A stretch of 64,000 bases of DNA from an uncultured Methanosarcinales archaeon. Its GTDB lineage: Archaea; Nanobdellota; Nanobdellia; Woesearchaeales; 21-14-0-10-32-9. This document shows positions 8,909-63,635 of this stretch, piece after piece; position 1 is the first letter of the stretch, and each line of letters starts with the position of its first letter. The stretch is taken from the NCBI GenBank assembly GCA_964501945.1, contig CAZCTY010000002.1, positions 2,541-66,540 of the forward strand, in the 5' to 3' direction. The position numbers and the translations under genes were made by a program. Below the pieces are notes generated by a model that was not told the DNA's origin, did no database searches, and saw nothing but the letters and a program-made list of their open reading frames with translations.

Positions 8909-8934
8909 CTATATTCACCTTTCAAATAAAAATA

Positions 8935-12706
<3,772 letters not shown>

Positions 12707-16943: not shown

Positions 16944-17699
16944 ATGGTAAGTTTTTGGAACGCTGTAAATAAAGTAATAGAACAAGCAGACATACTATTA
17001 ATAGTAGTTGATGCAAGAATCGCAGAAGAAACAGTGAATACAGAGGTAGAAAATAAAATAAAAAAAACAAAAAAACCTTACTTTTATGTTATAACCAAAT
17101 GCGATTTAATCACACAAAGAAAAGCAGAGATGCTAAAAAAAGAAATTAGACCCTCAATTTTCATATCATCAAAAGAATATCACGGACTGAAAAAATTAAG
17201 AGAACAAATCATAATTACAGGCAAAAAAAATTACTCAGAAAAACAATCATATGTAGTAGGCGTTCTAGGATACCCTAATGTTGGAAAATCCTCACTTATA
17301 AACGCATTAAATGGGAGAAGCTCTGCTGGAGTTAGCAGTACTAGCGGGTTTACAAAAGGAATACAAAAAATTAGAAGCGATAATAAAATACTTTTCTTAG
17401 ATAGCCCCGGAGTGATACCATACAAAGAAAAAGATGCATTAAAACATTCAATAATTGGAACAATAGATTATAATAGAGCGAAAGATTTAGATTTAGTAAT
17501 ATACAAACTATTCGACACATTCCCAGGCATAATAGAGAGACACTACGATTTAGACACAGACCTCGAAGAAGATGAAAAAATTGAAATAATCGCTAAAAAA
17601 AATAATATGTATAAAAAAGGCGGCATCCCAGATATTGAGCGAGCATCAAGAAAAATACTAAAAGATTGGCAAGAGGGAAAAATAAAAAGTACCAAGTAA
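16944..17699 (+). CDS. circularly permuted GTPase (YlqF/RbgA/Nug-like ribosome-biogenesis GTPase)
   Basis: G4 (ITKCDL) precedes G1 (GYPNVGKSSLINAL) and G3 (FLDSPGV), which is the permuted order. Confidence 0.75.
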   Translation: MVSFWNAVNKVIEQADILLIVVDARIAEETVNTEVENKIKKTKKPYFYVITKCDLITQRKAEMLKKEIRPSIFISSKEYHGLKKLREQIIITGKKNYSEKQSYVVGVLGYPNVGKSSLINALNGRSSAGVSSTSGFTKGIQKIRSDNKILFLDSPGVIPYKEKDALKHSIIGTIDYNRAKDLDLVIYKLFDTFPGIIERHYDLDTDLEEDEKIEIIAKKNNMYKKGGIPDIERASRKILKDWQEGKIKSTK

Positions 17700-17721
17700 G
17701 AATTCTTTAAAAAAATATTGT

Positions 17722-19191: not shown

Positions 19192-19200
19192 TTTTAAAAA

Positions 19201-21914: not shown

Positions 21915-22688
21915 ATGCGCGGTGTATTTAAAAAAATATTATTGATTGGTGCAATTACAGGGTCTATGCTTTTACCTAAAAACGAGTACCAAATACAAGA
22001 TAGTAATAAAAATCTAGAAAACACAATAACAGCAGAAATTAAAAGAAATGAACTAGTAATAGATGCGAGTAGAAAGAATGTAGGCGTAGATTTTTACACA
22101 TTTTTTAGATACGTATACACAGATAAAGATTCAAGAACTTGCCCTGATAGCTACAGAGAATTAGAACCTAAAACGAAGCAAGATATAAAATTAGGACGCG
22201 CCCTTAAAGATTCATTACAAATTATATATGAATCAATGATACCAAATCATAAAAAAGAAGATAACTGGGGGCCGATGTTAAAGAGCGAGATGAGAATCCC
22301 TAATGGAACATATACGCCTTGGCACCAAGCATTAGACATATTCTCAAAGAACGGAACAAAAGTAATAGCACCTTTCTCAGGACTTGTAATTTCCTCAGGA
22401 GATATGTGGCGAGGAGAATATAATAACAATAAAATTACAAATTGGAACGGAAAAGGACTTACCATTAGAGGAGGAAACGGAGTTATAATATACAATCCCG
22501 AAGAGAGAGGATACATGTTAATAACGCACTTAGATGAAAACATAAAAGTTCAAGCAGGAGATTTTATAAGCAAAGGAAGCACCATTGGACGCATAGGCCC
22601 GACAGGAACTGCAAGTAGATTAGGACATGATAACCACATACACGTCGCATATAAATTACCTACAGAAGATAACTTATTAAAGCCATAA
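21915..22688 (+). CDS. secreted M23 (LytM/lysostaphin-type) metallopeptidase
   Basis: N-terminal hydrophobic signal KKILLIGAITGSMLL. HxxxD motif in WHQALD, HLDENIKVQAGDFISKGSTIGRIGPTG, and HxH in NHIHVAYK. Confidence 0.8.
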   Translation: MRGVFKKILLIGAITGSMLLPKNEYQIQDSNKNLENTITAEIKRNELVIDASRKNVGVDFYTFFRYVYTDKDSRTCPDSYRELEPKTKQDIKLGRALKDSLQIIYESMIPNHKKEDNWGPMLKSEMRIPNGTYTPWHQALDIFSKNGTKVIAPFSGLVISSGDMWRGEYNNNKITNWNGKGLTIRGGNGVIIYNPEERGYMLITHLDENIKVQAGDFISKGSTIGRIGPTGTASRLGHDNHIHVAYKLPTEDNLLKP

Positions 22689-28000: not shown

Positions 28001-28512
28001 AAACCAGTGTTAAACCACTGAGGACTATTAGGAGCACACATCTGATTTAAAATCATAAAAGCAAGTTCATCATAAAAAGTAGCAGCATCCTCCTCTGATT
28101 TAAAGTAGCCGTAACGAACACCCCAATCAGTCCAACAACCAGCTAATCTATGAGCGACTTGCTTAACGCTCCTCTCAGAACCAAATACTATATTACCTTC
28201 TTTATCAACAGCAACATCTCCATTTTCATCAAGCTGAGGAACACCTTTTTTTCTAAGATACTTTTGAGCAAGAATATCAGTTGCCATCTGACTCCAAGAA
28301 GACGGAACTTCAATTTTTTTTATTTCATAAACAACAGAACCATCACTGTTTCTAATAACAGAATCCCTATAAGTATATTCAAACATTTCATAAACAGACT
28401 TCCCTGGCTTTGTAAAAAGCCTTTTAACACTAAGCCCTTTTTCATAATATTTAGCATTTGTTATCTTATCTACAAACTCATCACCCAACACATCATATTT
28501 TTTCTCACTCAT
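25045..28512 (-). CDS. nrdJ: class II (adenosylcobalamin-dependent) ribonucleotide reductase
   Basis: 1155 aa. Motifs GSGTGTNFSSIRGRGEHLSGGGKSSGLMSF and NPCSEYMFLDDTACNLAS, plus a C-terminal Cys-rich tail CTSCGS..CAVCEDCGNTTGCS. Confidence 0.9.
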   Translation of the reverse strand: MSEKKYDVLGDEFVDKITNAKYYEKGLSVKRLFTKPGKSVYEMFEYTYRDSVIRNSDGSVVYEIKKIEVPSSWSQMATDILAQKYLRKKGVPQLDENGDVAVDKEGNIVFGSERSVKQVAHRLAGCWTDWGVRYGYFKSEEDAATFYDELAFMILNQMCAPNSPQWFNTGLFTAYGIKGESQGHYYVEPDSGEVKQSQDAYSRPQPHACFIQSIRDDLVNEGGLFDLITREVRLFKYGSGTGTNFSSIRGRGEHLSGGGKSSGLMSFLTVFDRAAGAIKSGGTTRRAAKMVCLDLDHPEIEDFIEWKMREEQKVASLVQGSITSSKHLNNIMRIAHEKKSVNLKENIALRKAVKKALDDEVPINYVQRALMLVRQGKKEIDFVVMDSNYESEAYLTVAGQNSNNSVRIPNKFFETLHKEEDWHLTRRTDGKVHKTLKASELWDKINYSSWMSADPGVQFDDTINEWHTCPNDGRINASNPCSEYMFLDDTACNLASFNLVKFFDNGTKMFDVDKFKHGVRLWTTVLEISVLMAQFPSKEIAKNSYLYRTLGLGYANIGALLMRMGLPYDSPQGRSFAASITAIMGGQSYTTSAELARAKGPFERFDENKEDMLKVIRNHRRAAHNAKPSEYEGLTIKPVGLGVDNCPEYMVRHARSAWDDALSWGEEYGFRNAQVTVIAPTGTIGLVMDCDTTGVEPDFALVKFKKLAGGGYFKIVNQSVPSALEVLGYSNEEIDKIVKYCVGAGTLKDAPGINHEDLKEKGFTDVAIQKVESQLKTVFELKYAFTKWTLGDDVLKELGFTEEQIGKPDLNVLEALGFSKRDIEKAEEYVCGTMTVEGAPGLKEEHVFVFDCANKCGKLGTRLIDYSGHIQMMAAVQPYISGAISKTINMDKTASISDVAKAHKDAWKLMVKAVALYRDGCKLSQPLSSTSQEDAELLMLKQVDDVDESVDAKKIHEKVVYKMSQKKMPAKRKGFVQEANVGGQKVFLRTGEYEDGSLGEIFLDTYKEGASYGALLNCFAVAISKGLQYGVPLEEFVDSFTFTRFEPAGMVIGHPVIKNATSILDYVFRTLGYEYLGRKDFVHVKTMEASDTKEEPEKEGPKEKQLRISGKEADVYEAKSKGYTGEQCTSCGSMKLKRSGSCAVCEDCGNTTGCS

Positions 28513-43998: not shown

Positions 43999-45489
43999 TT
44001 AGAAATCTTCAACTTTTTTACGTTTAACCTTCCTAAAAACAGGAGGCGCAGATAAAACCCTACGCTCACGCTTGTTTTTAGTCTCAAACTTAGCACCAGC
44101 CCTTGGAAGAGTTAAATCCCCAACGACCCTAAGCTTAGATTTTAATTTATATGTAAAAATCCTCTCCTCAAAAGGCTCTAATTCATCTAAGTCCCAAAAG
44201 AGCATAGTGCCTTTTTTAGATGTCTTCGTAGTCCGAGACGGCTTAACATGACCTAACTGGTTAGATTCAATGTATGTTGTAATACCTCTAACCTTATCAC
44301 TTATAGTTAAGTTATTAACACTATTATTAGACCTATTCCTAATAAATAACCTAACCCTTAAATTAGAAGAACCCTCTTCCTCGTCCTCATCAACAACAGC
44401 TACTTCTTTTTCCACTATAACAGGACTTCTTAGTTTAAAGTACGCAACAACTAAAGCGATGATTAACAAAATAGCAAACACTAAAGGCCAATAATTAGTA
44501 GTTACAGTAATAGTTTTTTTCTCAGTAGGACTTAAAGTAGGCGTCCAAACCAAGTTATTCTCACCTTCAATCCTCTCAAAACTCGCAGCAGGATCAGAGC
44601 GAGAAAACAAGTTTTTAAACCAACTACTAGCAAGCTTAACCTCAGGGGTAGCTTCCCTATTACCAAAGTTTTCAACTTCAATTACATGATTTACTATGAA
44701 TAAAGCACTCCTAGACGTATCAAGCTTAGTTGGAGTAGACGAGTAACCCCTAACAGAAACAGTTTGCCTATCTTGAGATATAACACTATCAGTTCTAGGA
44801 TAATAAATTTGAGCAACAACTTCATACTCACCAGGCGCCTTTAAAGGATCCATAGAGAACACAAGCTCTTTTTCAATAGCATCCGCATCAGTTAAATGAG
44901 GTCCTGGCGGAATATCAATGACTTGTTCACCTTCAAATAAGTCACTTCTAATCCTAAGCTCAGCATCCTCAATGTTTAAAGGATTCCTATTTCTAAGTTT
45001 TACAAGAACACGAGCATTATCCCTAGGATCAATTTCATCAGCTAAAGATAAGGTTGTATTTACATTAGGAACAAAGTCAAAGAACAAACCATCAAAGCTT
45101 AGATGAACAGGAATATCAAGAACTTCTCTAAATTCTCCGCTACGCACGTTAAGATTTAACCTGTAAACACCAATAGGCGTAGCAGGATTAGGCTTGACAC
45201 TTAAAATGAAACTGTGCTCTGATGAGGCAGGCACTCTGACATTAGACGGATAAGATACCCATTTCAAAGAGTCACTAATAGATAACCCAAATGAGAAAAC
45301 CTTATCAACCGGTTCAAGATTTGTAATAGTTATATTATATTTAGCAGTCTCATCAGGACTTATCCTAAAATCAATATTCTCCCTTTCAATTAAAACATCC
45401 GATGCAGAAACACTCGGAATAAACGCAAAAAAAAGCGCTAATAAAAACAATACAAACACGTTAAATAGTAGTGACTTCTTTAATACCAT
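43999..45489 (-). CDS. bitopic surface protein: signal peptide, ectodomain of about 300 aa of beta-sandwich-like repeats, one TM, and a cytoplasmic DUF11/CARDB-like tail of about 145 aa
   Basis: Signal peptide LLALFFAFIPSVSAS/D. TM at aa 334-351 (WPLVFAILLIIALVVAYF) followed by KLR. The tail has LRVRLFIRNRSNNSVNNLTISDKV...MLFWDLDELEPFEERIFTYKLK. Confidence 0.55.
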   Translation of the reverse strand: MVLKKSLLFNVFVLFLLALFFAFIPSVSASDVLIERENIDFRISPDETAKYNITITNLEPVDKVFSFGLSISDSLKWVSYPSNVRVPASSEHSFILSVKPNPATPIGVYRLNLNVRSGEFREVLDIPVHLSFDGLFFDFVPNVNTTLSLADEIDPRDNARVLVKLRNRNPLNIEDAELRIRSDLFEGEQVIDIPPGPHLTDADAIEKELVFSMDPLKAPGEYEVVAQIYYPRTDSVISQDRQTVSVRGYSSTPTKLDTSRSALFIVNHVIEVENFGNREATPEVKLASSWFKNLFSRSDPAASFERIEGENNLVWTPTLSPTEKKTITVTTNYWPLVFAILLIIALVVAYFKLRSPVIVEKEVAVVDEDEEEGSSNLRVRLFIRNRSNNSVNNLTISDKVRGITTYIESNQLGHVKPSRTTKTSKKGTMLFWDLDELEPFEERIFTYKLKSKLRVVGDLTLPRAGAKFETKNKRERRVLSAPPVFRKVKRKKVEDF

Positions 45490-45589: not shown

Positions 45590-47587
45590 TTATTCATATA
45601 CAATATCGTATTTTACAAGGAAACAATCAGCATCATCTTTAATGTTTGTAAACCTTTTTAATTTCTCAAGAAACGCATCCAAATCCAACGAAGAAGATAA
45701 TTCCTCAGAGAATTGAATTTCCTCATATTTTATCTCATCATGATTTGCAAACCTTGAGAGCTTTGAGAAAATAAAATCATCAGATAAAACAAAAAAACCA
45801 TCTCTGCGAGATAAAAAACCCCTATCCAATAAATTGTTGAGCTTTTCTTTAATACCAAAAGATAACCCTAGCTTTTGAATTAAATCCTCCTCACGAAATT
45901 TCTTGTTACTGAATGCAAACCTTAAAATACTAATTTCTATGCTATCAAGATTTTTAAGATCAGGAATTTTTTTAGATAAAAAATCATTTTTATCAACAAT
46001 TACCTCACCTGAAACAAGCTCAACGAGTAATGAATACTCCCCTTGCTTGTCTTGACATGAAAACTTTTTGCAAGGAACAAGAATGTTTTTAATTTGCCCA
46101 ATAGGCTTTTGACTCATAAGCATTAAATCTTTATGAGAAATATTAGGCTTTATTAAAGGCAAAACTTTTTTTTCATCAAAACTAGAAACTTTTTCCATAA
46201 AGTCCTCCTGCTTAGGCTCAAGTATTGAGTGAGCCTTACCACCATGAAGACTTAGCCTTGGACGAACATTTACAAAGAGAGGAACTTCTGTTAAGCCAGT
46301 TATTAAAGCAGTACCAATAGGTAAGTTCTGAATTTCTTTTTCAGCAGAACTTGTAAGACCCTCAACGGATGCACTAAGCGCCTTTAAATCATTAGGATTT
46401 GTAACTTTTAAAATAAGCTGAGTAGAACATTGACTTATAACAGATTTATCAACACGCGCAGGCCTTTGACTTATAGCACAAAGACCAAGACCGAACTTAC
46501 GACCCTCTGATGCAATGTTTCGAATAATCTTACTCGCCTTAGTCTCACCGAAACTACGCTCAGGACAATAGTTATGAGCCTCTTCAACGATTAAGAAAAA
46601 AGGAGGAACTTTGTTTTTTTTACGAAGCTCAAATAAATCTTTACAAAGCTTGTACACGATTATTTCTTGAACATCAGGATTTATACCTTTAAGATTTATG
46701 ATACTTGCTTTACCAGGCTTTAAAAACTCAGAGTAAGGCACAGGAGTTCCAGAAAAAATATTCATATCCTTTAAGTGCTCAATCATACTCATAATACTCC
46801 ACTTAGCAGAACTCTCCTCCATCTCCAAAGCATGCATTATAGAATTAAAATCAGACGTGCGCGCAGTTTTAAGCGCGCTGTATAAAAGAGCGAGCTGAGT
46901 ATTAGACATCTTACCAGGCATTAGATGAACAAGTTCTTGCTTATCAGAAGTCCTCGGAAGCCTTAGAGGACGCGCGCCTTTAACAATTTCACTATCACCA
47001 AATTCTAAGATGTCAAAAGATGCAGGCTTTAAATCAAGCCCAGCAAGTTTTTCAAGCTCACCTTCAACATCATTTTTAAACCTTAATGAAGAATACTCAC
47101 CGTGAGGATCAATTATTAATAAAGGAATGTTACGCTTAATCATTTCCTCAAGTAAAACGCCGACAGCATAAGATTTACCAGAACCAGATTTTGCGAGAAC
47201 AGCTAAGTGCATGGATAAGACCTTGTTTAAATCTAATGAAACTTTTATGTCCTTACCCTCAAGCTCACCTAAAAAAGCACCCTCATCACCATGAATTTTT
47301 ATGATTTCCTCGATGAAATCATCTTGAGCTTCAAGAACCTCAGAACCGATATCTAACGGGATTCTAAGCTTTTTAACAATACCATCTTCCCTAAACCCAA
47401 TGATTTGACAATAAGCAGTCGTAGAATTTAACTCTTTAAATACCTCAACTACTTGAGCTAAGACATAACCATACGCATTATGCATTACTTGAACATACTC
47501 AAATTTTTTAGGTTCAGTCTCCGCAATGAAAGTGAAGTCATTAGTCGTAGATTTTCCAGATATCTTGCCAAGAATCATAAAAACCAA
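45590..47587 (-). CDS. herA: HerA-family (FtsK/HerA superfamily, DUF87) ATPase with a C-terminal extension of about 200 aa containing a winged helix
   Basis: N-terminal HAS-barrel-like segment, Walker A LAKSGSGKSYAVGVLLEE, IIDPHGEY, Walker B FFLIVEEAHNY and SQRPARVDKSVISQCSTQLILKVTNPNDL. The tail includes LIQKLGLSFGIKEKLNNLLDRGFLSRRDGFFVL. Confidence 0.75.
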   Translation of the reverse strand: MVFMILGKISGKSTTNDFTFIAETEPKKFEYVQVMHNAYGYVLAQVVEVFKELNSTTAYCQIIGFREDGIVKKLRIPLDIGSEVLEAQDDFIEEIIKIHGDEGAFLGELEGKDIKVSLDLNKVLSMHLAVLAKSGSGKSYAVGVLLEEMIKRNIPLLIIDPHGEYSSLRFKNDVEGELEKLAGLDLKPASFDILEFGDSEIVKGARPLRLPRTSDKQELVHLMPGKMSNTQLALLYSALKTARTSDFNSIMHALEMEESSAKWSIMSMIEHLKDMNIFSGTPVPYSEFLKPGKASIINLKGINPDVQEIIVYKLCKDLFELRKKNKVPPFFLIVEEAHNYCPERSFGETKASKIIRNIASEGRKFGLGLCAISQRPARVDKSVISQCSTQLILKVTNPNDLKALSASVEGLTSSAEKEIQNLPIGTALITGLTEVPLFVNVRPRLSLHGGKAHSILEPKQEDFMEKVSSFDEKKVLPLIKPNISHKDLMLMSQKPIGQIKNILVPCKKFSCQDKQGEYSLLVELVSGEVIVDKNDFLSKKIPDLKNLDSIEISILRFAFSNKKFREEDLIQKLGLSFGIKEKLNNLLDRGFLSRRDGFFVLSDDFIFSKLSRFANHDEIKYEEIQFSEELSSSLDLDAFLEKLKRFTNIKDDADCFLVKYDIVYE

Positions 47588-51996: not shown

Positions 51997-52207
51997 CTAG
52001 AAGAACCAACCCTCTCTCCATTCTTCTTCGTATATGACGGGGAAACAAAAAATCGTTTATAAAGTTTTGTTTTTAATAGAATAATAAATGTTTTTTAGTT
52101 ATTGCTGAGTAATAAATATTATAAATGGAGAGTGATTTCTTAACACATAAAGCTTACACAAAAACTGTTGTGATTTAATTCAATTAATTTAAGTGAGAGG
52201 TCAATAC

Positions 52208-53332
52208 ATGAAGCTTAGACACAGAGAAATAGTTAATTCAGCGTGCATTTCAGCACTCCTAGTTATTAATGCAGCGAATTTTACAGAAGGAGATGAGCCT
52301 AGCTTGAAGTATTTGAGAAATGCAAAGAATACTTTAGAGACTGCTGTGAATAAAATGCCGAATTTTAGTGAAGGTTTTAAGAGAACATCTGATTTTTTTT
52401 TAAAAACGAAAGATAAATTAAAAGATGTCGCGAGTAGAATTGATTTTGGCCAAGATACAGATGAGGAATATTTTGAAAACGATAGCTTTGATTATGAAGC
52501 TTTGATTAATCGCGCATTAAAAAGCGATGAACATAACCTTGTTGATTCTGTTATAAAATTTGTTCCAAAAGATTTCCTTAGAGAATACATAGATAATGAA
52601 GCAAAAAATAGCAATCCTAATTATAATCGCTTAATGCTCGCATCAAGAACAGGCGAGGAAATTAGAGATAAGCGATTTAATAGCGGAAGAAATTTTAATG
52701 AATCACTTAGAAATATGGCCGCGAGTGCGAATGTTAGACCTGGATCTTTTGGAAGCCGAGGAGAACTTAAAGAATTTTTAGATTTGTATAAAGATGATTT
52801 CGTAGAGGTTGCAAAAGAGTATGATTTAAATCCTTCTCTGCTCGCAAGCATTGCAAGCGTTGAGAGTCGAGGAAGAACGTTTACAATTTCAAATACAGGA
52901 GCACTCGGAGCGTTTGGACAGACAAGCTATGCATATATGCCTCAAACTAATTGGTTTGATGGAAATGGACGAGATGCAATAAATCCTTTTCATACATTAG
53001 AGGCCATGGATAGAGCCGGCGATATGATTAGAGGATTAATTGATTTATATGCACGAGTTGATGATGAACACCACACATTAGCATTAACAACATACAATCA
53101 AGGAGAAGCCGTTGTTAATAGAGCCATAAGATTGGCAAGACAAGAAGGCATTTTTGAACCTAAAAAAATAATTCAACACACAAATAATACAAGACGAGAT
53201 AGAAATATTTTTTCAATCGCAACACGTGAGGGAAGAAATTACTCCGCGCATATTCAAAGAGAAAATGTTATTATGAGCGAGTATTTTAATACTCAATTTG
53301 ATAATCTTGCAAATACTCATTCATATGAATAG
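52208..53332 (+). CDS. SLT-domain (GH23) lytic transglycosylase with an N-terminal region of about 200 aa of unknown function
   Basis: LLASIASVESRGRTFTISNTGALGAFGQTS (E-S...S..GA.G..Q signature) and LTTYNQGEAVVNRAI (AYNxG motif). The ATG at 52208 has a GAGAGG RBS upstream. The track ORF starts at GTG 52193. Weak hydrophobic N-terminus ACISALLVINAANF. Confidence 0.75.
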   Translation: MKLRHREIVNSACISALLVINAANFTEGDEPSLKYLRNAKNTLETAVNKMPNFSEGFKRTSDFFLKTKDKLKDVASRIDFGQDTDEEYFENDSFDYEALINRALKSDEHNLVDSVIKFVPKDFLREYIDNEAKNSNPNYNRLMLASRTGEEIRDKRFNSGRNFNESLRNMAASANVRPGSFGSRGELKEFLDLYKDDFVEVAKEYDLNPSLLASIASVESRGRTFTISNTGALGAFGQTSYAYMPQTNWFDGNGRDAINPFHTLEAMDRAGDMIRGLIDLYARVDDEHHTLALTTYNQGEAVVNRAIRLARQEGIFEPKKIIQHTNNTRRDRNIFSIATREGRNYSAHIQRENVIMSEYFNTQFDNLANTHSYE

Positions 53333-53381
53333 AAAACAATAAAAATGAGAAGAACAATACATAAGTATATAGGTGATTTAT

Positions 53382-54050
53382 ATGAGTAAAAAAATACCTA
53401 AGCCCTTAGAGGAGATGATTAGTAGAGCAGAAGCATTAGATGTATATACATTCGCACTCAACCACAGACATGAAGACTTCATTATAAACCCAAAGCAAGA
53501 ACTCATTAAAGAAAAAGGACTTGACGCTGCAAGAGCTTATGTTAAAACAGTAGAAGGCCGAGAAGATTACGGTAAACGAGGAGCTGATAAGCTTAAAGAG
53601 ATTTTTTTTGAAGAGTTTAATGTTGATAAAAGCAATTATAATAAATCAGAACTAGAAACATTAACTAAAACACTTTATGGAATGAATAAGAAAAATATTT
53701 CTGAGGCAGTTGCAAGACACGGCTTAGAATTAGATGTTGAAACGTATAAAGAAGAATTTTTAGGCAATCATTTAAGCCAAATTAAACAATATGTTGTAAA
53801 TCACCACATAAAAAATTATGATGCAGAACACAACCCTGCAATACTTGACCACATATTACATGAAAATCATAAAACATATTTTAGAGAAGACGTATTACCC
53901 GAGCTTAAAACTGATCGCGCGAAAGATTATGTAGTCAACTCTTTTTTAAGATGGAAACTTGAAAAAAAGCAACAATCACCCCTAGGAGTTAAGGACATAA
54001 AAGATACGGGGTTTTCTGAGTATTTGAAAAAAGAATACTTGAAACAATAA
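53382..54050 (+). CDS. hypothetical protein, paralogue A (no signal peptide)
   Basis: The ATG at 53382 has AGGTGA upstream (the track start GTG 53373 lies inside that RBS). It shares a QELIKEKGLDAARAY motif with the next gene. Confidence 0.45.
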   Translation: MSKKIPKPLEEMISRAEALDVYTFALNHRHEDFIINPKQELIKEKGLDAARAYVKTVEGREDYGKRGADKLKEIFFEEFNVDKSNYNKSELETLTKTLYGMNKKNISEAVARHGLELDVETYKEEFLGNHLSQIKQYVVNHHIKNYDAEHNPAILDHILHENHKTYFREDVLPELKTDRAKDYVVNSFLRWKLEKKQQSPLGVKDIKDTGFSEYLKKEYLKQ

Positions 54051-54200
54051 CCTTTTTTTCTTTGAAAAACAACCTAAAATGAATGTTTTTGTCACTTAAA
54101 AGTGAATAAAAGCGAAACATTTATATAGTTTGAGTACTTAATAGTAGTATAAAGATAAGATTTTTTTAGATAAACAATCTAAAAAAACGAGGTAAAAAAA

Positions 54201-54845
54201 ATGTCAGATAAAAAAGATGAACCAACACCAGCCGAAAAGGCACAAAAGAAAATAGTCAAAGGATACAATGAAACAGTCCCAGGCGCAGTATTAGATTTTA
54301 AACACAAACAAGAAAAAGTACCCTACGATATCAGAGAACAGTTAATAAAAGATAAAGGCGCACCTGGAGCAGCAAAGTTCCTAAATACCGAAGATGGACA
54401 AAAATACATGATAGAACACCTAAAAGCAGGAAGCGAAAAAGTAGGATATGAAAGCCTGAAAAAAATAGGAAAAGTAGACGACTACTTAGCTGCACAATTC
54501 ATGGGAAACTTCATGCTAAACCAACAAGCACTAGCACAAGAAGTAGGCAGAAACGGATCACAATTCGACGGCGGAAATTACATGAAAGTACTACAACCAA
54601 ACATAGGAAACGTACAAGAAGGAGCTTTACTTAGAGTTGCAAACAGTTACGACCCAAAACTATCATCAGAATTACTTAAGAAAACAGGCACAGCAAAGTA
54701 CATGAAAGATACAAAAGACGTAAGCCCAACACAAGTAACACAAATAGTAGGTCTTGATGAAGGTGGAAAAAACCCACAAGGACCAAGCACACTAAGACAA
54801 CTAGGACTTGAAGATAAATTAAACGAAAAATACAGATTAAACTAA
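54201..54845 (+). CDS. hypothetical protein, paralogue B (no signal peptide)
   Basis: GAGGT RBS 9 nt upstream. EQLIKDKGAPGAAKF aligns with paralogue A, and the two are similar in length. Confidence 0.45.
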   Translation: MSDKKDEPTPAEKAQKKIVKGYNETVPGAVLDFKHKQEKVPYDIREQLIKDKGAPGAAKFLNTEDGQKYMIEHLKAGSEKVGYESLKKIGKVDDYLAAQFMGNFMLNQQALAQEVGRNGSQFDGGNYMKVLQPNIGNVQEGALLRVANSYDPKLSSELLKKTGTAKYMKDTKDVSPTQVTQIVGLDEGGKNPQGPSTLRQLGLEDKLNEKYRLN

Positions 54846-54852
54846 ACTGACT

Positions 54853-54942
54853 AAAAAAAAACCTTTTTTATTTTTTTTATTTAATTTAATTTTTTAGTAT
54901 AAAATATTTCTATTACAAAAAAAAAGATAAAGCAAAAAAAAG
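54853..54942. terminator. convergent intergenic region with oligo-T runs on both strands
   Basis: T6 (54864-54869) and T8 (54871-54878) follow the plus-strand gene. A9 and A8 runs (T-runs on the minus strand) lie at 54913-54940, downstream of the 733-aa gene. Confidence 0.35.
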
Positions 54943-57144
54943 TTAAGATTTAGACACAGTGAATGTTTGAGGATACCTTTTAGATGCATTGTTTACCAAA
55001 TCAAACACTTCCAAATCTTGATGAAGCAACAATTCCTGATAATCATAAGACGGATAGACAACATCAAAATAATCTACAGATAACAAATCATCTTTAGATA
55101 TGTTAAAAGTAAATTCATCCCTCAATTCCATGAACCCAAGAACTAAAGATTCATTAAAAACAATCTTTTCTAAGAAAACTTCCTCATCATCAACAAATAA
55201 GCCACTAATAAAACCATCAGGACCAACTTCATAAGTCTGATTTTCAATTACCCAAGGCTCATCTAAATCTAAAGAACTAACAACTTGAACGTTATACCTA
55301 CCCGGGACAAACCCCACAACATCAGACTCATGAGGCGCTTCAAAATCAACAACCCTAAAAAACTCAGAATCACCAGGCTCTTGAACCCTACTAAAAATAA
55401 CAACAACAGATTCATCATCATAAGGCAAATGCGTAGACTCACTCAACGCAACAGACCACTCCCTTGAAAAATCAGGCTCATCAGGAAGAGGATAAAGACC
55501 TAATTGAGGAGAGAATCTTAAAGTTCCAACACTAACCTCAACTTCTCTTTCAGGATAAACCTCAAAATCAACTTCAACAACGCCATCATCAACAATAAAG
55601 TCTTTAGTAACAGGAGATGCGAAGTAAGAATAATCATTAATAGATAAAGTGCCCCCAATACAAGGAGGAACATAAGTTTCAACATATACTTCATCCTCAT
55701 CTAATACCTCAAGATAAATAGATTCAGAACCACAACTATACTGAACAGATAAATCATAAACAGGATCAGATGTGTACGCATCAAATAAATTAATCCTAAC
55801 AGGAACAGTCCTCTGATCAACCGCTCCAAAACCACTCTCAAAGACATCATCCTCATCAAAATCAAACTCAGGGAAATCATCAAGCAAAGAAACCCTAGGC
55901 TCATTATTAACCAGATTAACAGTTACAGGGAATTGAAAAAAGAAACCATCCCCACCAAAAGAATCAGATTCTTCTAAAGTTATAAGAATAGGATAAACTA
56001 AGTCATAAGCATACTCATAACGCGTAACCCCAACCTCACCAATTAAAGGCATATCAACAGAACTACCCGCGTCCCTAACAGGACCAACCATGTCCCCCGA
56101 ACTTGGAAGAATATCTAAAAACATAGGCCACGAGCTAAAGAAATTAAACCTTACTTTAGTACTCTCAAGAACCTCAGGCTCAACTAATTCCAAAGGAAAT
56201 TGAAACTGAGAATAAATACCATCCAAATAAGGATTTTGCGTCATAGGAACATAAGAATCCCTCGAACCCCTAATTTGAAAATAAGGAACAGTCTCTTGAA
56301 GAGTTTGTTTTAACTCTTCCTCAACTGATGATATAGACCAAAACCTAAAGGAAGGCCCCATCTCAACATCAGGAGAGATAGGAGGAATATCAGCATCCTT
56401 GCCACCCATACTCAAAATAGATAAAATGAGACGAGTAGATTTTTCTAAGAAAGGCTCCTCATCTAAGAACTGAGTTTGAAGAGCAATTTGAGACGCTAAT
56501 TCATAAACATCCCTAAAACGAACATCAACAGTATTACTAAAACGACTAATAGATGAATCAAGGCCAGACGGAAATACAATAGATAAAGGATAATTTAAAC
56601 CAATGAAAACATCATCATCCCTAAAACGAACATCCGCAGACGGCTCTGCAGGAATAACCTCAAAGTCCTCATAATCCTCAAAATTATTAACACACTCCAA
56701 AATATTTTGCTCAACGTAATTACCAACCTGATACGCAATAGAACCACGACCACCAGATAGAGGAGGCACATTAAAAACATAAGAACTACCCTCATCCCTA
56801 GGAGAACCATCAAAATACAACCAAAAAGGCAAAACCCTATCACTACCCTCAAATATTTCTAAACCGGTATTCAAATAAGCAGGCTCATAACCATACATAA
56901 CATTACTCGCATCAGAAAAACCACCAGACCTACCAAGATCTTCAAGTACTTCACGACCAAGATCAGCAATACAATGATTAACACTATTCACCAAAGGCTG
57001 CAATTGAGCATCAACATCCTCAGAGAATTCATCTTCAACATCTAAATCAGGATCAACTTGAAAGATAAAAAAGAAAGCAATAAATGCTAAAATAAATACA
57101 ATCAAACCCAAAATGACAAATATAGTAACCTGACCTTTTTTCAT
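54943..57144 (-). CDS. 733-aa acidic, Lys-poor surface protein with an archaeal class III (type IV pilin-like) signal peptide
   Basis: The N-terminus MKKGQVTIFVILGLIVFILAFIAFFFIF has a basic n-region, Gly at -1, Gln at +1 and a long hydrophobic stretch. The ATG lies 2 nt after the upstream gene's stop, with GGTGGGGG inside the upstream gene's last codons. Confidence 0.6.
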   Translation of the reverse strand: MKKGQVTIFVILGLIVFILAFIAFFFIFQVDPDLDVEDEFSEDVDAQLQPLVNSVNHCIADLGREVLEDLGRSGGFSDASNVMYGYEPAYLNTGLEIFEGSDRVLPFWLYFDGSPRDEGSSYVFNVPPLSGGRGSIAYQVGNYVEQNILECVNNFEDYEDFEVIPAEPSADVRFRDDDVFIGLNYPLSIVFPSGLDSSISRFSNTVDVRFRDVYELASQIALQTQFLDEEPFLEKSTRLILSILSMGGKDADIPPISPDVEMGPSFRFWSISSVEEELKQTLQETVPYFQIRGSRDSYVPMTQNPYLDGIYSQFQFPLELVEPEVLESTKVRFNFFSSWPMFLDILPSSGDMVGPVRDAGSSVDMPLIGEVGVTRYEYAYDLVYPILITLEESDSFGGDGFFFQFPVTVNLVNNEPRVSLLDDFPEFDFDEDDVFESGFGAVDQRTVPVRINLFDAYTSDPVYDLSVQYSCGSESIYLEVLDEDEVYVETYVPPCIGGTLSINDYSYFASPVTKDFIVDDGVVEVDFEVYPEREVEVSVGTLRFSPQLGLYPLPDEPDFSREWSVALSESTHLPYDDESVVVIFSRVQEPGDSEFFRVVDFEAPHESDVVGFVPGRYNVQVVSSLDLDEPWVIENQTYEVGPDGFISGLFVDDEEVFLEKIVFNESLVLGFMELRDEFTFNISKDDLLSVDYFDVVYPSYDYQELLLHQDLEVFDLVNNASKRYPQTFTVSKS

Positions 57145-57146
57145 TA

Positions 57147-60100
57147 CTACTCAACCCCCACCCTTTGACAAAGCCTATTATCTCTAACACTTACAGCGTG
57201 AAAATAATCAGACAACCTATTAGTTTCAAATTCAATACAAAACTTCTCATAAACCCTCTCAGAACTGAAATCAGAAGGATTACTAAAACCACCAAAACTA
57301 ACCCTAGTGTTAGCCCCAGAAATTAAAATATCATCTCCTGCGACATTATTAGTGTAATCGTGCTCCCTACCAGAAGAATCATACGCAACGAGCCTAAACC
57401 TCAAGCCCTCAAGCTGAGCCTCCACCCCACCTTGAATCCAATAATCATAAAAACCTAATTCATCAGGAGAAGAAGTCCTCCTCGCAGCAATGAAAGCACC
57501 AGGCCTAGTACCACCACCAGCCCTAGTAGTAATAGAACCAGACGCACCCGCAGGAGGCGCAACAGGCTCATTGAAAGAATCATCACAAAAAGCCCTCTCA
57601 GGCTCAGTCACATAATCTAAAGACATAGCCAACTGACCCATAGCAGTATCATCCCTCCACTCACGATTATCAATACCAACAATGTCCGCTGCAATAGATA
57701 ATCCAAGCGCGCCCTCACGCATACGACCAAAAGAAGACATAGACTCATAACGCTCAGCTTGCTCAGCCATGTATTCATTAAACGCAATTTTTATACCATC
57801 CATAGCCTCACCAAACCAAGACCTACTACCCTCAGTTATCTCATCATTCATAGCACGCCTAAGCTGCCTACGATTAAGATCGTCAATATCATCAATATTA
57901 TTATCATCTAAAAGCTCTCGAATAAATTCCTCACTATACCCCGTTTCTCTTGAAATAATGTTCCAATCCAAATCATTTAAAGAATCCCTACGCCCCGCAT
58001 AATTATCTAAGACATCAAATACAGGCTGAAGCTCATCACGCCTATTTTGCTCATTAGTCAAACGCCTCGCCTTCTCCCACCTAATCTCAGCAGCCCTAAC
58101 CGCATAATCATACGCGACCTCGTTTTCAGCATAATAAGCAGCATAATACTCATTTATGTACTCCTTCATAATATCCTCGGCATTGTTATCTGCCAATAAA
58201 CCTAAAAAGCCCATTTCATCAGGCATCGAACCAAGATTAGCCTCAGCTTCATCTAAAAAATTATTTAACTCATCAAGCTCATTTTCTAATCTTTCACGAG
58301 TACCACTATCTAAAGCCTCCCAATCAGTTTCCTCTAACTCATATTGTATTGCAGATAACACACCAATATAAACAGGATCATAACTATCTAAAGCATCTAA
58401 ATCATCAAAAGCATTTTGCAAAGCTTCCTTTCGAACACCATCTACACCTTCCCAATCAGTATTCTCCAATTCATCACGAATAGCACCCATCCTCATAGAC
58501 GTATCTATATAAAATTGATCTAAAATTTCTCTTCGCTCACCCGCTAAATCAGTTAAACTATCATAACGAGAATCTAAGACATAACCCATTTGATTACCTT
58601 CAGGACCATAAACTAATAACTGCCTACCAATATCCACAGTATCCTCAGAAGTCATAATTGTCCTACCAATGAGCTGATCATCACCATCATATATGTAACA
58701 AGTATTACCCGTACACATAGCCCTATCCCCACCATCACCAAGAGGCATCTCCGTAGGTTCATATTCATCAAGGAATGTTTCTCTACCATAACCAAAACCT
58801 TCACGCTGAGCATCCATCTCCCAATTCCTCTGAATCATACCAATCGCACCAGTTAAAGCAGGAGAACACCTATCTTTAACATCATCACTCATACCAAAAC
58901 CCATCATTAATTGATCAACTGTACTTCTAATACGCTGATATTGAACAGGCAAACTCATAGCAGTTTGAGCAACAACACAAGCCCCATGAGCACTCGCAGA
59001 ACCAGTAGATAATAACCTACAAGCATAAGGGATCGCCCCACCAAGAAGAGCTGCAGGATCACGAATCATATTTTGAACGTCTTGCGCCGCATTAGTAAAC
59101 ATGTTAGTGAAAGGTAAAGCATACAAAACATTACCCGCCGTTCTAATACAATGATCATAACCACGATTACGCTCACAATGCTCAACAGATAAACCCATAG
59201 TACTAACACCTTCATTTAAACAAAGAGCATAATTACACTCAATACCCTGAGCAACCCTCCTATGATAAACAAAAGCAGGAAGACACATAGTCGCAACAGC
59301 CACATATTCACTCTTATATGGATTAAATAACTCCCTACTAGACATACTAAGATTACTCGCTATATCATCAACCCTCAAAGTCTCTCTTAAATCACCAAGA
59401 CCAATAGTGTCACTGTAAAAAGAATCAACCCAAGAAGATTCACACGCAATCGCCTCACACACAGGAACACCCAACTCAGCTAAAGTACCATAAGTCTCAT
59501 CTAACCCCGCAGTAACCGGCTGAAGAGTTTGACCTAAAGGCGCACCAACAACAGATGCCTCCGCGGCGGCCTGAGTCGCACCAAGCGCACCCCTAGCAGT
59601 ATCTGCTGAATGAGTAGCCCTACAAAGACCTTGAATCATATTAAGCGATTGCTCTAAACCATCAAGACGCCTATCAGTACGCTCAACACGCTCATTAACA
59701 GCATCAATTGTTTCATAAATTTTCTCATCAAGAGTGTAACCTTCTTCTAAATCAAATTTAACAGTGAAGTTTTTTTGCTCAGGAATCGCATAAAAATAAC
59801 CAAGATCAACAGACCTCAAATCTAAGCCACAATTAAATTCCAAAGTATCATAATCAGCATAACGATGATCATCACGAATAGTAAGACCAGCCCCCCTAAG
59901 TGTTAAACGAAGATACGCCACGTTAGATTCCTTATTAACATCTAATAACCTCAAATTAGAAACATCCCCCCTACGACCAGTTTCATTCTCAACAACAGGC
60001 AAACACCTAAAATTAGAAATATCAACAGATACCAAATCAGCATCCCCAATTAATTCAACTTCAAGGAAAATATCCCTACTATAAGCCAAGTTCCTAATCG

Positions 60101-61199
60101 TAAGAGAGTCAGCTTGCTGATTAACATTACCAACAGACCAAAAATCAGGAACCTCATCAGATTGAACTTCAACAATGTCAACAGAAACAGAGGAGTGAAC
60201 CTCATTACCAGCAAGATCTGAGAAAATAACAGGAATTTCATAAACTCCCTTCTCAGAGACAAAAGAGGTAACATCAATAGAACAAACAAAAACACCATCC
60301 CTATCAACACATTCACGAGAAAGATTAGCAGAGTTCACAGGATCACCAATGACCTTCATTTCAACAACAGGACTAACATCCTCAGATACATTAGCCCTAA
60401 TAGTAAAAGAATCAGAAACCCTCGTAATACCTAAATCAGAAGACTCATCAACACCAATAAACTCAACTACAGGAGGAGAAGAATCACAAATAAATTCACC
60501 AACCTCAGACGGAGAAACACGCATACCCGCATCATCCCAACTACGCTGATTATCAATACGCGCAGTAATACTGCTACCATCAGCACAAGAAAAAGAAGCT
60601 GAAGTAAAACCCCTACAAGTAAAATCCTCACAATCACTAAGTAAAGCAGTACTCTGACCGATACGCGCCCTCACATTACCTCTACTAAAACCAACATCAG
60701 AGTTTTCTAATACAACAGATAAGTTGTTAATACCAGAAGATACATAACAAGTACCATCATGACACTGATTAGACGTAAAAGACGAGACACGAGGAGTAGA
60801 AGTTGCAAGTTGCAAAGAAACATTTTCTTGCACGATGACACCTTGCCTGCTAAAATAGAATTCAAATACACCATCCCCATCGTTTTTTAATAAACGCAAG
60901 TTATTAATCCTACAATTAAATACACCATTTTCCTCGACGCAGTTAGGCGCAATACTATTGTAATTAGCAATATTTGAATCATAACCAAAAGCCTCATTTA
61001 CACCAGAAGCATCAACGACTAAGTTAGAAGCATTAGCTGAAAATTCTAAGTGAACAATAATAAGATTACCCCTAGAATAATGAGTAACCTCACTACCCGC
61101 AGCAGTGAATGAAAGATCACTAATTTCTAAGGAGAGCGCAGGCGATGAGAGTAATAATAAGAAAGACAAAAAAAACAATGAATATACTATAAATTTCAA
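57147..61199 (-). CDS. 1350-aa secreted, Cys-rich, acidic giant protein of unknown family
   Basis: TTG start with GGTG 6 nt upstream. Sec-type signal MKFIVYSLFFLSFLLLLSSPALS/LE. The N-terminal half is beta-rich with paired Cys, followed by a central Cys-rich helical block, acidic 44-aa repeats and a beta-rich C-terminus. No TM anchor. Confidence 0.6.
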   Translation of the reverse strand: MKFIVYSLFFLSFLLLLSSPALSLEISDLSFTAAGSEVTHYSRGNLIIVHLEFSANASNLVVDASGVNEAFGYDSNIANYNSIAPNCVEENGVFNCRINNLRLLKNDGDGVFEFYFSRQGVIVQENVSLQLATSTPRVSSFTSNQCHDGTCYVSSGINNLSVVLENSDVGFSRGNVRARIGQSTALLSDCEDFTCRGFTSASFSCADGSSITARIDNQRSWDDAGMRVSPSEVGEFICDSSPPVVEFIGVDESSDLGITRVSDSFTIRANVSEDVSPVVEMKVIGDPVNSANLSRECVDRDGVFVCSIDVTSFVSEKGVYEIPVIFSDLAGNEVHSSVSVDIVEVQSDEVPDFWSVGNVNQQADSLTIRNLAYSRDIFLEVELIGDADLVSVDISNFRCLPVVENETGRRGDVSNLRLLDVNKESNVAYLRLTLRGAGLTIRDDHRYADYDTLEFNCGLDLRSVDLGYFYAIPEQKNFTVKFDLEEGYTLDEKIYETIDAVNERVERTDRRLDGLEQSLNMIQGLCRATHSADTARGALGATQAAAEASVVGAPLGQTLQPVTAGLDETYGTLAELGVPVCEAIACESSWVDSFYSDTIGLGDLRETLRVDDIASNLSMSSRELFNPYKSEYVAVATMCLPAFVYHRRVAQGIECNYALCLNEGVSTMGLSVEHCERNRGYDHCIRTAGNVLYALPFTNMFTNAAQDVQNMIRDPAALLGGAIPYACRLLSTGSASAHGACVVAQTAMSLPVQYQRIRSTVDQLMMGFGMSDDVKDRCSPALTGAIGMIQRNWEMDAQREGFGYGRETFLDEYEPTEMPLGDGGDRAMCTGNTCYIYDGDDQLIGRTIMTSEDTVDIGRQLLVYGPEGNQMGYVLDSRYDSLTDLAGERREILDQFYIDTSMRMGAIRDELENTDWEGVDGVRKEALQNAFDDLDALDSYDPVYIGVLSAIQYELEETDWEALDSGTRERLENELDELNNFLDEAEANLGSMPDEMGFLGLLADNNAEDIMKEYINEYYAAYYAENEVAYDYAVRAAEIRWEKARRLTNEQNRRDELQPVFDVLDNYAGRRDSLNDLDWNIISRETGYSEEFIRELLDDNNIDDIDDLNRRQLRRAMNDEITEGSRSWFGEAMDGIKIAFNEYMAEQAERYESMSSFGRMREGALGLSIAADIVGIDNREWRDDTAMGQLAMSLDYVTEPERAFCDDSFNEPVAPPAGASGSITTRAGGGTRPGAFIAARRTSSPDELGFYDYWIQGGVEAQLEGLRFRLVAYDSSGREHDYTNNVAGDDILISGANTRVSFGGFSNPSDFSSERVYEKFCIEFETNRLSDYFHAVSVRDNRLCQRVGVE

Positions 61200-62396: not shown

Positions 62397-63635
62397 TTAA
62401 AACTTTTTTATAATAACCGATTTAACAGTGTCATGCTCGCTTTCTTTAATCGTGATTAAGACTTTTTGACTATTAATAGAGTATGATTTGTTAACATCAA
62501 CACTATCAAGACGCTCAGCTAAGAACTTAGATATAGGCTTGAACTCATTAGTAATAGGCAGTGAAACATTGAGCTTTTTATTAATCGTCCTGATAAAAGT
62601 TTTACCCTTAACAAGCCACTCACCATTACCCAAGGATTTGATTAAAGAACTAACACGATCTTCCTCATCATATATATCACCCACTAACTCCTCCAAGATA
62701 TCCTCAACTGTAACTAAACCAATAACTTTTTTTCTAGCACCTAAAACAATAGCTAAATGATTATTCCTCTGCTGAAGCTCAGTTAAAATCTCATCAATTT
62801 TTTTATGCTTATTTACAAAGTAAACAGGACTCATAATAGATTTGAGCTTAACATCATTATTACCCTTATAGATTTCACCCATAACATCATGAATGGTTAA
62901 CATACCCCGAATTTTTTCCCTACTAGATGCATGAATCGGAATCCTAGTAAAACCATGCTCAATTATTAGAGGCGTAGCCTGCTCAACAGACAAGTTCCAA
63001 TCAAGCGAGAAAATACTACTCGCAGGAGTCATAATCTTGTGAACAGAAACATCATCCAATTTGAAAGCCTGTGTGATTATATTTTTCTCATTTTTTTTAA
63101 TCTCGCCCTCCTTCGCGCCAACATGAACCAAGTATTTAATCTCGCCCTCAGTTACAAGAGGATCAGGATTCTTATTACCAGATAAGTTATTGACAAGAAT
63201 GCTCAAATAACTAAAAGCTTTAACAAAAGGATAAAATAAATAATACAAAAATACGAGGATAGGCGAGATTGCAAGAGCAATTGTTTTAGAATTGTTTACA
63301 ACAAAAGTTTTTGGAATTATCTCACCAAAAGTTAAAATTACAAGAGTCATAACACCAGTGATTAAACTAATACTAGTATTTTGAAAGAAATCAAAGGAAA
63401 TTTTAGTTGCAAGAGCAGAACTTGCAACGTTAGTAATATTATTACCAATAAGAATAGTTATCAGAGAATCGTTAGGATTATTTTTGAGCTTTAATAAAGC
63501 ATGAGAGTTCCTAACATTTTTTTGAGCGAGCTGCTCAGCTTTTAATTTAGATGTGCCAACTATTGCAACCTCAGAGCCACTGAAAAAAGCAGATAGCGCA
63601 ATCGTTATTATTATTAAAATAAATTCTCCCTGCAT
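62397..63635 (-). CDS. CNNM/CorC/HlyC-family transporter (DUF21, CBS pair, CorC_HlyC)
   Basis: N-terminus IIITIALSAFFSGSEVAIV (DUF21), then GEIIPK, a CBS pair (IMTPASSIFSL.., GLVTVEDILEELVGDIYDE) and a C-terminal transporter-associated domain. Confidence 0.8.
   Translation of the reverse strand: MQGEFILIIITIALSAFFSGSEVAIVGTSKLKAEQLAQKNVRNSHALLKLKNNPNDSLITILIGNNITNVASSALATKISFDFFQNTSISLITGVMTLVILTFGEIIPKTFVVNNSKTIALAISPILVFLYYLFYPFVKAFSYLSILVNNLSGNKNPDPLVTEGEIKYLVHVGAKEGEIKKNEKNIITQAFKLDDVSVHKIMTPASSIFSLDWNLSVEQATPLIIEHGFTRIPIHASSREKIRGMLTIHDVMGEIYKGNNDVKLKSIMSPVYFVNKHKKIDEILTELQQRNNHLAIVLGARKKVIGLVTVEDILEELVGDIYDEEDRVSSLIKSLGNGEWLVKGKTFIRTINKKLNVSLPITNEFKPISKFLAERLDSVDVNKSYSINSQKVLITIKESEHDTVKSVIIKKF

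Follow-up and report, generated by a model that had tools for sequence, protein, structure and literature searches.

A two-gene module for a pilin-signal protein and a cysteine-rich secreted giant, possibly tied to murein degradation, in woesearchaeal and related archaea

Among uncultured archaea, Woesearchaeota and Pacearchaeota rank with the most abundant. Previous literature has described scattered murein hydrolase genes in these archaea and has guessed at bacterial hosts. In the passages of it that were covered in this study, soluble lytic transglycosylase (SLT)/GH23 genes of Woesearchaeota and Pacearchaeota, with proteins of up to 3000 amino acids (aa), were proposed to serve in binding or degrading bacterial walls (PMC8204110, 2021); "vampiristic" Woesearchaeota were reported with large GH23 enzymes (Vigneron et al. 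2022, PMC9723730); and peptidoglycan hydrolases were reported to be prominent in Nanoarchaeota, in a study presenting archaeal hydrolases that kill bacteria (PMC12352652). The idea of an attack on murein was published in these reports and is not new, and they concur in attributing murein hydrolases to these archaea. In this study, a five-gene block was analyzed in a stretch of 64,000 nucleotides (nt) of contig CAZCTY010000002.1 (assembly GCA_964501945.1, positions 2,541 to 66,540), called the window below. One arm of the block encodes an SLT protein and two small proteins (A and B), and the other encodes a 733-aa protein with a pilin-type signal (M) and a 1350-aa secreted protein (G, the giant).

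From sequence and gene context, G and M were interpreted, with moderate confidence, as a two-protein surface complex typical of Woesearchaeota, Pacearchaeota and Nanoarchaeota, with a function tied to the degradation of bacterial peptidoglycan. The features of the block were as follows (positions in the window):

51997-52207, no strand: intergenic region, AT-rich and divergent, that separates Rpp14 from the SLT arm; presumed from its sequence to be the promoter region
52193-53332, plus strand: protein with an SLT/GH23 lytic-transglycosylase domain, open reading frame (ORF) of 379 aa
53373-54050, plus strand: A, ORF of a soluble, Lys/Glu-rich protein of 225 aa, no signal peptide
54201-54845, plus strand: B, ORF of a soluble protein of 214 aa, no signal peptide
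54846-54942, no strand: convergent intergenic region with oligo-T and oligo-A runs, likely a terminator serving both arms
54943-57144, minus strand: M, ORF of an acidic protein of 733 aa
57061-57144, minus strand: class III-type signal and hydrophobic helix of M (N-terminal sequence MKKG, then QVTIFVILGLIVFILAFIAFFFIF)
57147-61199, minus strand: G, ORF of a secreted giant of 1350 aa
57150-57596, minus strand: C-terminal beta domain of G, residues 1202-1350 (jackhmmer)
59100-59312, minus strand: hallmark Cys motif of the G superfamily, C-[LI]-[PT]-[AG]...C-[LM]...G....C.......C, G residues about 630-700

The ORF listing of the 64-kb window contained all five ORFs at 52193-61199 in two convergent arms, as an earlier reading of this sequence (the original prediction) had described them. 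They are real genes and not chance ORFs, because homologues and synteny were conserved. One flank is occupied by the exosome superoperon (Rpp14, proteasome-alpha, SBDS, Rrp4, Rrp41 and Rrp42), the other by the gene for an AI-2E family transporter and, after it, a CNNM/CorC gene. The remainder of the window consists of housekeeping genes, including those for RNA polymerase subunits, tRNA synthetases, ribonucleotide reductase, enolase, aIF2 and Ack/Pta. The NCBIfam scan gave 0 matches for any of the five block proteins. In searches with single sequences and profiles, neither G nor M had a Pfam or PDB sequence match.

The N-terminus of M (MKKGQVTIFVILG) followed the family form MKKGQxTIFVILG, in which Q5, T7, F9, I11 and G13 were invariant in 10 homologues. 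It was near-invariant while the homologues were overall just 21-50% identical. With its basic residues, Gly at position -1 and a hydrophobic stretch of about 20 residues, it reads as a class III (prepilin-type) signal. Five M-family N-termini were scanned with curated profiles. PF13400 (TadE/G-like) gave sub-threshold matches in four of the five, the window's own not among them (E-values 0.005-2.6, cut-off 22.3 bits), and PF04021 (Class_IIIsignal) matched one homologue with an E-value of 3.9. The pilin-like signal claimed for M was supported by the invariant pattern in the homologues, the curated profiles remaining below threshold. M would be a surface protein with a class III signal or an N-terminal anchor. 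No other class III-type signal and no further paralogue of M or G were found in the window.

The three-dimensional structure of M was modelled by using AlphaFold2 (AF2), with a predicted local distance difference test (pLDDT) score of 73. The model showed a helix at residues 3-28, a variable acidic linker of low confidence at 28-45, a second helix at 46-72, an alpha/beta domain at about 46-330 and beta-sandwiches at about 380-730. A Foldseek search of the model against the PDB and a viral library returned generic CnaB, transthyretin-like and Gram-positive-pilin beta-sandwiches, with a query template modelling score (TM-score) of at most 0.15. The original prediction had called for structure searches with the block proteins. 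These gave only generic sandwiches for M, and the sequence searches of the PDB with G, M and the SLT protein gave nothing but coiled-coil noise.

In one alternative, M would serve as a true minor or tip (pseudo)pilin in a type IV filament, with G as its PilY1-like tip adhesin, and the machinery that assembles the pair onto the pilus would be encoded elsewhere in the genome. The prepilin-like signal and the sub-threshold TadE/G-like matches agree with this, as does a peptidase gene in the window:

4696-5559, minus strand: type IV leader (prepilin) peptidase A24 (PF01478, E-value 4.7e-15), next to bacterial-type Ack/Pta genes; candidate for the processing of the M signal

Large adhesin-like and PilY-like proteins are also known from the type IV filament loci of archaea (bioRxiv 10.64898/2026.04.22.720090). 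M, at 733 aa, far exceeds known pilins. The alpha-1 helix of pilins is continuous, about 50 residues long and packed on a beta-sheet head, whereas the helix of M in the model, at residues 3-28, appears to give way to the variable acidic linker of low confidence. Genes for a pilus or secretion ATPase, a platform protein or a small pilin were missing from the window, no pilus-type Pfam families occurred among the annotated genes of the first nine related loci (L001-L009), and the flanks of about 160 related loci held almost no further class III-type signals. A pilin role for M was therefore considered quite unlikely.

The same absences bear on the analogy with secretion, conjugation and pilus machines, on which the original prediction had drawn. 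The core of such machines was missing, and the analogy was not supported. The 9-kb block contained no VirB4- or VirD4-type ATPases or channel proteins. The sole P-loop candidate in the vicinity was a HerA/DUF87 gene at 45590-47587, which lies beyond the exosome operon and is syntenic in L001.

G had the Sec-type N-terminus that had been claimed for it. The N-terminal sequence was MKFIVYSLFFLSFLLLLSSPALS/LE, with the Sec-type signal at residues 1-23. The protein has a single hydrophobic segment, at its N-terminus, an isoelectric point (pI) of 4.3 and 28 Cys. Its start codon is TTG, preceded by AGGTG, with a TTTAAATA box upstream. The stop codon of G (TAG, 57149-57147) and the start codon of M (ATG, 57144-57142) are 2 nt apart, in agreement with the proposed translational coupling of the pair. 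Residues 151-1350 of G were modelled with AlphaFold from an alignment of two sequences, at a pLDDT of 32, of which the secondary structure alone is usable. It suggests a beta-rich region at about 24-480, a helical Cys-rich core at about 490-810, an acidic helical or coiled-coil region at about 885-1200 and a C-terminal beta domain at 1202-1350. In the G family, at least 15 Cys were invariant in 63 aligned homologues. The hallmark motif, of about 60 residues with four Cys, was the sole segment common to G-type giants and the longer giants named G2, with domain E-values from 8e-13 to 3.5e-6 in an iterated profile search.

M proved to be widespread. The first 10 homologues were followed by at least 318 tblastn-confirmed relatives in GTDB species-representative genomes, and the M-bearing genomes were labelled mostly as Woesearchaeota, Nanoarchaeota or Pacearchaeota. 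By record title, the nearest relatives came from metagenome-assembled genomes (MAGs) of Candidatus Woesearchaeota and Nanoarchaeota. A scan with the M alignment found at least 272 relatives in JGI metagenome contigs, with an identity of at most 27% among the matches listed. For the core of G (residues 130-800), 684 cluster representatives were found at an E-value of 1e-3 or lower among 1.84 billion proteins.

M was regularly paired with a giant. In 171 loci, 155 of 174 evaluable M genes had an adjacent giant gene on the same strand. The order was M then giant in 134 of these 155 cases and giant then M, as in the window, in 21. G homologues adjoined M in all nine of the first loci (L001-L009). 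About 98 of the adjacent giants were recognizable as G, and the rest were G2 giants of 1300-2300 aa. The commoner subtype was an operon of M, G (about 1050 aa), X (400-900 aa) and Y (a membrane protein of 250-300 aa), in this order (L005, L007, L009, L021, L027, L041, L047, L063, L070 and L075). A second module of M followed by a giant often lay about 7.5 kb downstream of this operon, and on many contigs two M-giant modules were a few kb apart. The C-terminal beta domain of G also ended the X gene 3' of G in many loci (jackhmmer; residues 743-876 in L005 and 518-654 in L009). Therefore, the 1350-aa G of the window is effectively a fusion of G and X.

Some further observations were made on these relatives. 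Many M-bearing MAGs deposited as third-party annotation (TPA) records (L010-L089) were labelled "uncultured Methanosarcinales archaeon", although their M and G grouped with woesearchaeal and nanoarchaeal genes; this may reflect mislabelling or an M/G family that extends beyond DPANN. In L080, a Hint domain ended a 327-aa ORF (8422-9402) inside the M-G cluster, with an E-value of 8.2e-7, just below the cut-off; it may be a processing module similar to pretoxin-HINT. In L001 (GCA_964462285, 5951-9951), the G orthologue was open for 1246 codons and was then frameshifted near its 3' end, and the public gene calls show only short minus-strand ORFs in this region. The frameshift is probably an assembly or annotation problem, a pseudogene being the other possibility.

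In the main rival explanation, G and M would build the general envelope of the organism as a two-component S-layer analogous to SlaA/SlaB. G would make up the large outer lattice and M the stalk that anchors it in the membrane, with the SLT protein, A and B as mere neighbours or secondary enzymes. One coupled operon for a large Sec-secreted protein and its smaller, membrane-anchored partner would suit such a layer, as would the very wide spread of the pair in the lineage and its place among housekeeping genes with conserved synteny. Both proteins are also acidic, rich in beta-sandwich domains and fast-evolving. On the other hand, two divergent M-giant modules a few kb apart on many contigs would be unusual for S-layer genes, the enzymatic C-termini of the giants are variable, at least 15 Cys are invariant in G, and M has a class III-type signal instead of a C-terminal anchor. 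By the terms of the original prediction, a match of the giants to a known S-layer or adhesin family would have counted against it, and no sequence match to such families, including the solved S-layer proteins, was obtained. An S-layer was considered unlikely on balance. It would be compatible with hydrolases attached to the layer, and it is not exclusive of a surface complex tied to peptidoglycan degradation.

The SLT domain named in the original prediction was confirmed above the gathering score: PF01464 matched residues 206-319 with an E-value of 3.1e-7 and 30.4 bits, against a Pfam gathering cut-off of 21.3 bits. The start of the protein is more likely the ATG at 52208, which gives 374 aa; it is preceded by a Shine-Dalgarno-like GAGAGGT element and agrees with the orthologue starts and the choice of the gene callers. 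Family 1 lytic transglycosylases have their catalytic Glu in an E-S motif, with GLMQ-like and AYNxG motifs downstream. The SLT protein has VES (224-225), GAFGQ and TYNQGE; E-S and YNQGE were invariant across the three orthologues (window, L001 and L090), and the GLMQ motif was degenerate. The predicted catalytic Glu is E224 in the 379-aa numbering (nt 52862-52864). The N-terminus, MKLRHRE followed by IVNSACISALLVINAA, resembles a short Sec signal, and both orthologues had the same pattern. They also shared with the window protein an N-terminal region of about 170 aa that is lineage-specific. In the PDB, sequence and profile searches with the SLT protein gave only coiled-coil noise, and a metagenome scan with the SLT alignment found 0 relatives.

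The original prediction had proposed a search for the block genes in related genomes, with a lack of co-localization as a refuting outcome, and co-localization was found in two of them. In L090, where M was 49% identical, the complete block was present in the order G > M < 211 < 221 < 148 < SLT. In L001, where M was 40% and SLT 31% identical, G, M and SLT were kept at the same chromosomal position, in the order AI-2E, G > M < 228 < SLT, with Rpp14 and the genes of the exosome next; the single small gene had no detectable similarity to A or B. In the more distant giant-then-M loci (L003, L008, L010-L013 and L015), a small soluble convergent gene followed M, and no SLT gene was present.

This conserved position also bears on a viral origin, in which a virus or mobile element would have integrated to give the block, with virion or fusion proteins in G and M. 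The G+C content was slightly higher over G and M (0.395-0.40) than in the window overall (about 0.34; roughly 0.27-0.39 elsewhere), and the SLT protein resembled phage tail lysins, in that it weakly matched the lytic tail protein and endolysin families of PHROG (E-values from 5e-8 to 5e-5). The rise in G+C was attributed to the acidic, Lys-poor composition of the two secreted proteins (pI 4.1-4.3). No integrase, flanking repeat or adjacent tRNA was found at the block, and the position between the exosome operon and the AI-2E gene was kept in L001. The scan for M in the 2.9 million viral contigs of IMG/VR returned no relatives, and the viral explanation, judged extremely improbable, was rejected on this result.

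Stronger evidence for a link between the pair and murein hydrolases came from domain fusions. An SLT domain lay inside the giant adjoining M in five loci, each time above the Pfam gathering score (E-values 4.6e-8 in L040, 2.8e-6 in L089, 4.1e-9 in L122, 5.1e-21 in L166 and 8.2e-15 in L167). These SLT-bearing giants probably correspond to the published giant SLT family fam00969. The giant of L150 had a truncated SLT domain (sub-threshold in Pfam at 17.8 bits; E-value 1.3e-6 with a local SLT profile), and that of L127 had an Amidase_2 domain. The L122 and L127 giants were positive with the iterated G profile, and the L122 giant also contained the C-terminal beta domain of G. Enzymes were found in the next gene as well. 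In L054, SLT, M23 and Amidase_2 domains were combined in one protein of 1230 aa (17373-21062) directly 3' of M and its giant, which would make it a murein degrader with three enzymes in an archaeal MAG; the gene after the giant encoded SLT and GDSL domains in L061, GDSL and Amidase_2 domains in L083, and in L076 an M23 protein that ended in the C-terminal domain of G. In total, hydrolase domains were fused to the giant or encoded just after it in at least 11 loci. Therefore, four kinds of murein-directed enzyme have been joined to the M-giant module repeatedly and in more than one way. By the Rosetta-stone argument, the fusions support a functional link of the pair to the SLT enzyme, and fusions into a giant that is translationally coupled with M are hard to explain by chance.

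The fusions also weigh on the explanation that the two arms are functionally unrelated, the SLT protein, A and B being a separate unit such as a horizontally acquired lysin for nutrition or for remodelling the cell's own polymers. The arms are indeed convergent and separately transcribed, A and B have no signal peptides, the SLT protein weakly matches phage lysin families, and SLT is not found within 10 kb of most M-G modules. Yet the neighbourhood was kept in three genomes even though SLT identity fell to 31%, and murein-hydrolase domains were repeatedly fused into the giants of M modules or encoded directly 3' of them. Unrelated arms were thus regarded as improbable.

Several points weigh against the proposed tie of G and M to peptidoglycan degradation. 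A hydrolase was seen in about 15 of about 160 M-giant loci within the DNA examined, so hydrolysis may be an addition to the module rather than its core role; these adjacency counts, set against no genome-wide background, are unconvincing by themselves. A separate SLT gene adjoined the pair in just the three closest genomes (window, L090 and L001). The link between G and the SLT-bearing G2 giants is the motif of about 60 residues, and the iterated profile by which it was detected could drift. The model of G failed at its pLDDT of 32, so no fold was obtained for it, and the modelled fold of M matched only generic beta-sandwiches. The secretion signal of the SLT protein was read from hydropathy alone. 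In sequence searches, its N-terminal region had no match in any giant; therefore, its docking to the complex is a guess.

A and B had been described as paralogues. Compared directly, the similarity was marginal (20% identity, E-value 4e-4). A matched its L090 orthologue L090_221 with 35% identity (E-value 2.5e-35), B matched L090_211 with 27% identity (E-value 1.7e-23), and these two orthologues matched each other with 28% identity (E-value 8e-16). A and B are true paralogues, because the L090 orthologues match them and each other, and the paralogy that was weak in the direct comparison became solid. The duplication predates the split from the L090 lineage. With no signal peptide, A and B are probably cytoplasmic. 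Comparison of A and B with the small convergent genes 3' of M in other giant-then-M loci was not significant by BLAST and hhalign (hhalign probability 2%). An iterative search with A and B brought in the small gene of L008 only, and the correspondence of these small genes to A and B was treated as one of position.

The original prediction had also pointed to M23 and C1 peptidases elsewhere in the window. Both were confirmed, with secretory N-termini, and their genes flank an alanyl-tRNA synthetase gene:

17722-19191, minus strand: C1 papain-family peptidase of 489 aa with an acidic composition, numerous N-x-S/T sequons, a long extension at the C-terminus and a secretory N-terminus
21915-22688, plus strand: M23 (LytM-type) peptidase (PF01551, E-value 8.7e-12), with the secretory N-terminus MRGVFKKILLIGAITGSMLL

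The M23 peptidase possibly belongs to the same murein-degrading repertoire as the SLT protein, and the two peptidases may be part of a shared extracellular degradative repertoire.

A working model can be put forward for the proposed G-M complex. M would be exported, and its class III signal would be cut after Gly4 by the A24 prepilin peptidase of the window. Processed M would be held by its N-terminal hydrophobic helix or inserted in a pilus-like stalk, with the beta-sandwich domains facing outward. Through translational coupling, G would be made at a fixed ratio to M; it would exit via Sec, be stabilized by many disulfides and dock on M. In many relatives, the giant itself would bear the enzymatic "warhead" (SLT, Amidase_2 or M23, sometimes a GDSL esterase). 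In the subtype of the window, the warhead would be the separate, Sec-secreted GH23 lytic transglycosylase of the other arm, whose N-terminal region would dock to the complex, and the secreted M23 peptidase at 21915-22688 possibly acts alongside it. At contact with a bacterial host or prey, the complex would bind the envelope and open the murein locally. A and B would be cytoplasmic accessory proteins, possibly chaperones or regulators. The gene families, their signals, the coupling, the synteny and the fusions were observed, whereas the formation of the complex, the processing of the signal, the surface location, the enzymatic activity and the bacterial target belong to the model.

The envelope-breaching apparatus of the original prediction was thus retained in part. 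The fusions tie the pair to hydrolases and the prepilin peptidase fits the signal of M, but no secretion or pilus machine was found in the window. A bolder proposal is that M-G is an undescribed, lineage-wide surface machine with no known relatives, present in hundreds of species and extended to M, G, X and Y in other subtypes, which attaches to bacteria and opens their walls with interchangeable hydrolase warheads, some fused to the giant and some recruited as proteins of their own. It is offered here tentatively, as a possibility that is somewhat doubtful at present. If it is true, many of these archaea are episymbionts or predators of bacteria and not of archaea.

Other genes of the window were also noted. 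A protein with CNNM, CBS and CorC_HlyC domains is encoded two genes from G (62397-63635, minus strand) and resembles the TlyC/K03699 type. In the passages covered, proteins of this type were called a pore-forming toxin of "predatory" Woesearchaeota (Vigneron et al. 2022, PMC9723730). The domain content of the window's protein rather suggests a Mg/Co transporter. A 496-aa protein (43999-45489, minus strand), encoded between aIF2 and the HerA/DUF87 gene, had a borderline match to DUF11. DUF11 is a repeat of cell-surface proteins, and this protein may be a further surface protein. A 120-nt tRNA call by Rfam at 16720-16839 (minus strand, 59.5 bits), near tRNA-Lys and tRNA-Asp, was not reported by ARAGORN and is probably an intron-containing archaeal tRNA. 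In the class II ribonucleotide reductase of 1155 aa (25045-28512, minus strand), the barrel domain was matched in two separate stretches, and its homologue in L003 (1-3770) carries an intein with a LAGLIDADG endonuclease.

The analysis ties murein hydrolases to a conserved and widespread two-protein putative surface module, which consists of a pilin-signal anchor and a Cys-rich giant. The M-G module provides molecular targets and a genomic marker by which lineages interacting with bacteria could be predicted. Confirmation would make it a new type of apparatus for cross-domain attack or attachment, and it would account for murein-cutting enzymes in an organism that is not expected to make murein.

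The original prediction had called the locus undescribed, and this applies to part of it. The SLT giants and the bacterial-wall idea had already been published, but the M-G module was not found described. In the parts of the literature searched, no description was found of the M family with its invariant prepilin-type N-terminus, the Cys-rich core of G, the near-obligate pairing of M with giants and its G, X and Y variants, or the unfused arrangement of the window. The passages covered of PMC8204110 and PMC9723730 do not mention an M partner, a Cys-rich core or the operon structure.

Compared with known systems, the SlaA/SlaB S-layer of Sulfolobales likewise pairs, in one operon, a large protein that is secreted with a smaller one anchored in the membrane. 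M and G differ from these in having no sequence similarity to them, M would be anchored N-terminally via its class III-type signal, and related genomes have several paralogous M-G modules as well as fusions with enzymatic domains. The tip complexes of type IV pili (minor pilins with PilY1) and the archaeal surface proteins with class III signals (the Sulfolobales bindosome) likewise combine a protein with a prepilin-type signal and a large secreted non-pilin; a prepilin peptidase is present in the window, and an adhesion role is proposed. Unlike in these systems, M is about 700 aa long with a flexible linker after its helix, genes for an ATPase, a platform protein or small pilins are absent near the block, and no homology of M or G to PilY1 or known pilins was detected. 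VirB1-type lytic transglycosylases of type IV secretion and conjugation are likewise encoded beside genes for envelope-associated proteins, but the block lacks VirB4/VirD4 ATPases and channel parts, and the producer is not expected to have murein, which points to a foreign target.

Phage tail lysins and polymorphic toxins likewise join a conserved scaffold to a variable C-terminal wall-degrading domain, and the SLT protein weakly matches PHROG "lytic tail protein" families. Unlike them, the M-G locus has no virion genes and no relatives on viral contigs; it is chromosomal, with conserved synteny. The published SLT giants (fam00969 in PMC8204110 and the GH23 giants of PMC9723730, in the passages covered) come from the same lineage and are giant secreted proteins with SLT. 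In contrast, G of the window has neither SLT nor another Pfam domain, and its SLT is encoded as a separate protein of 374 aa.

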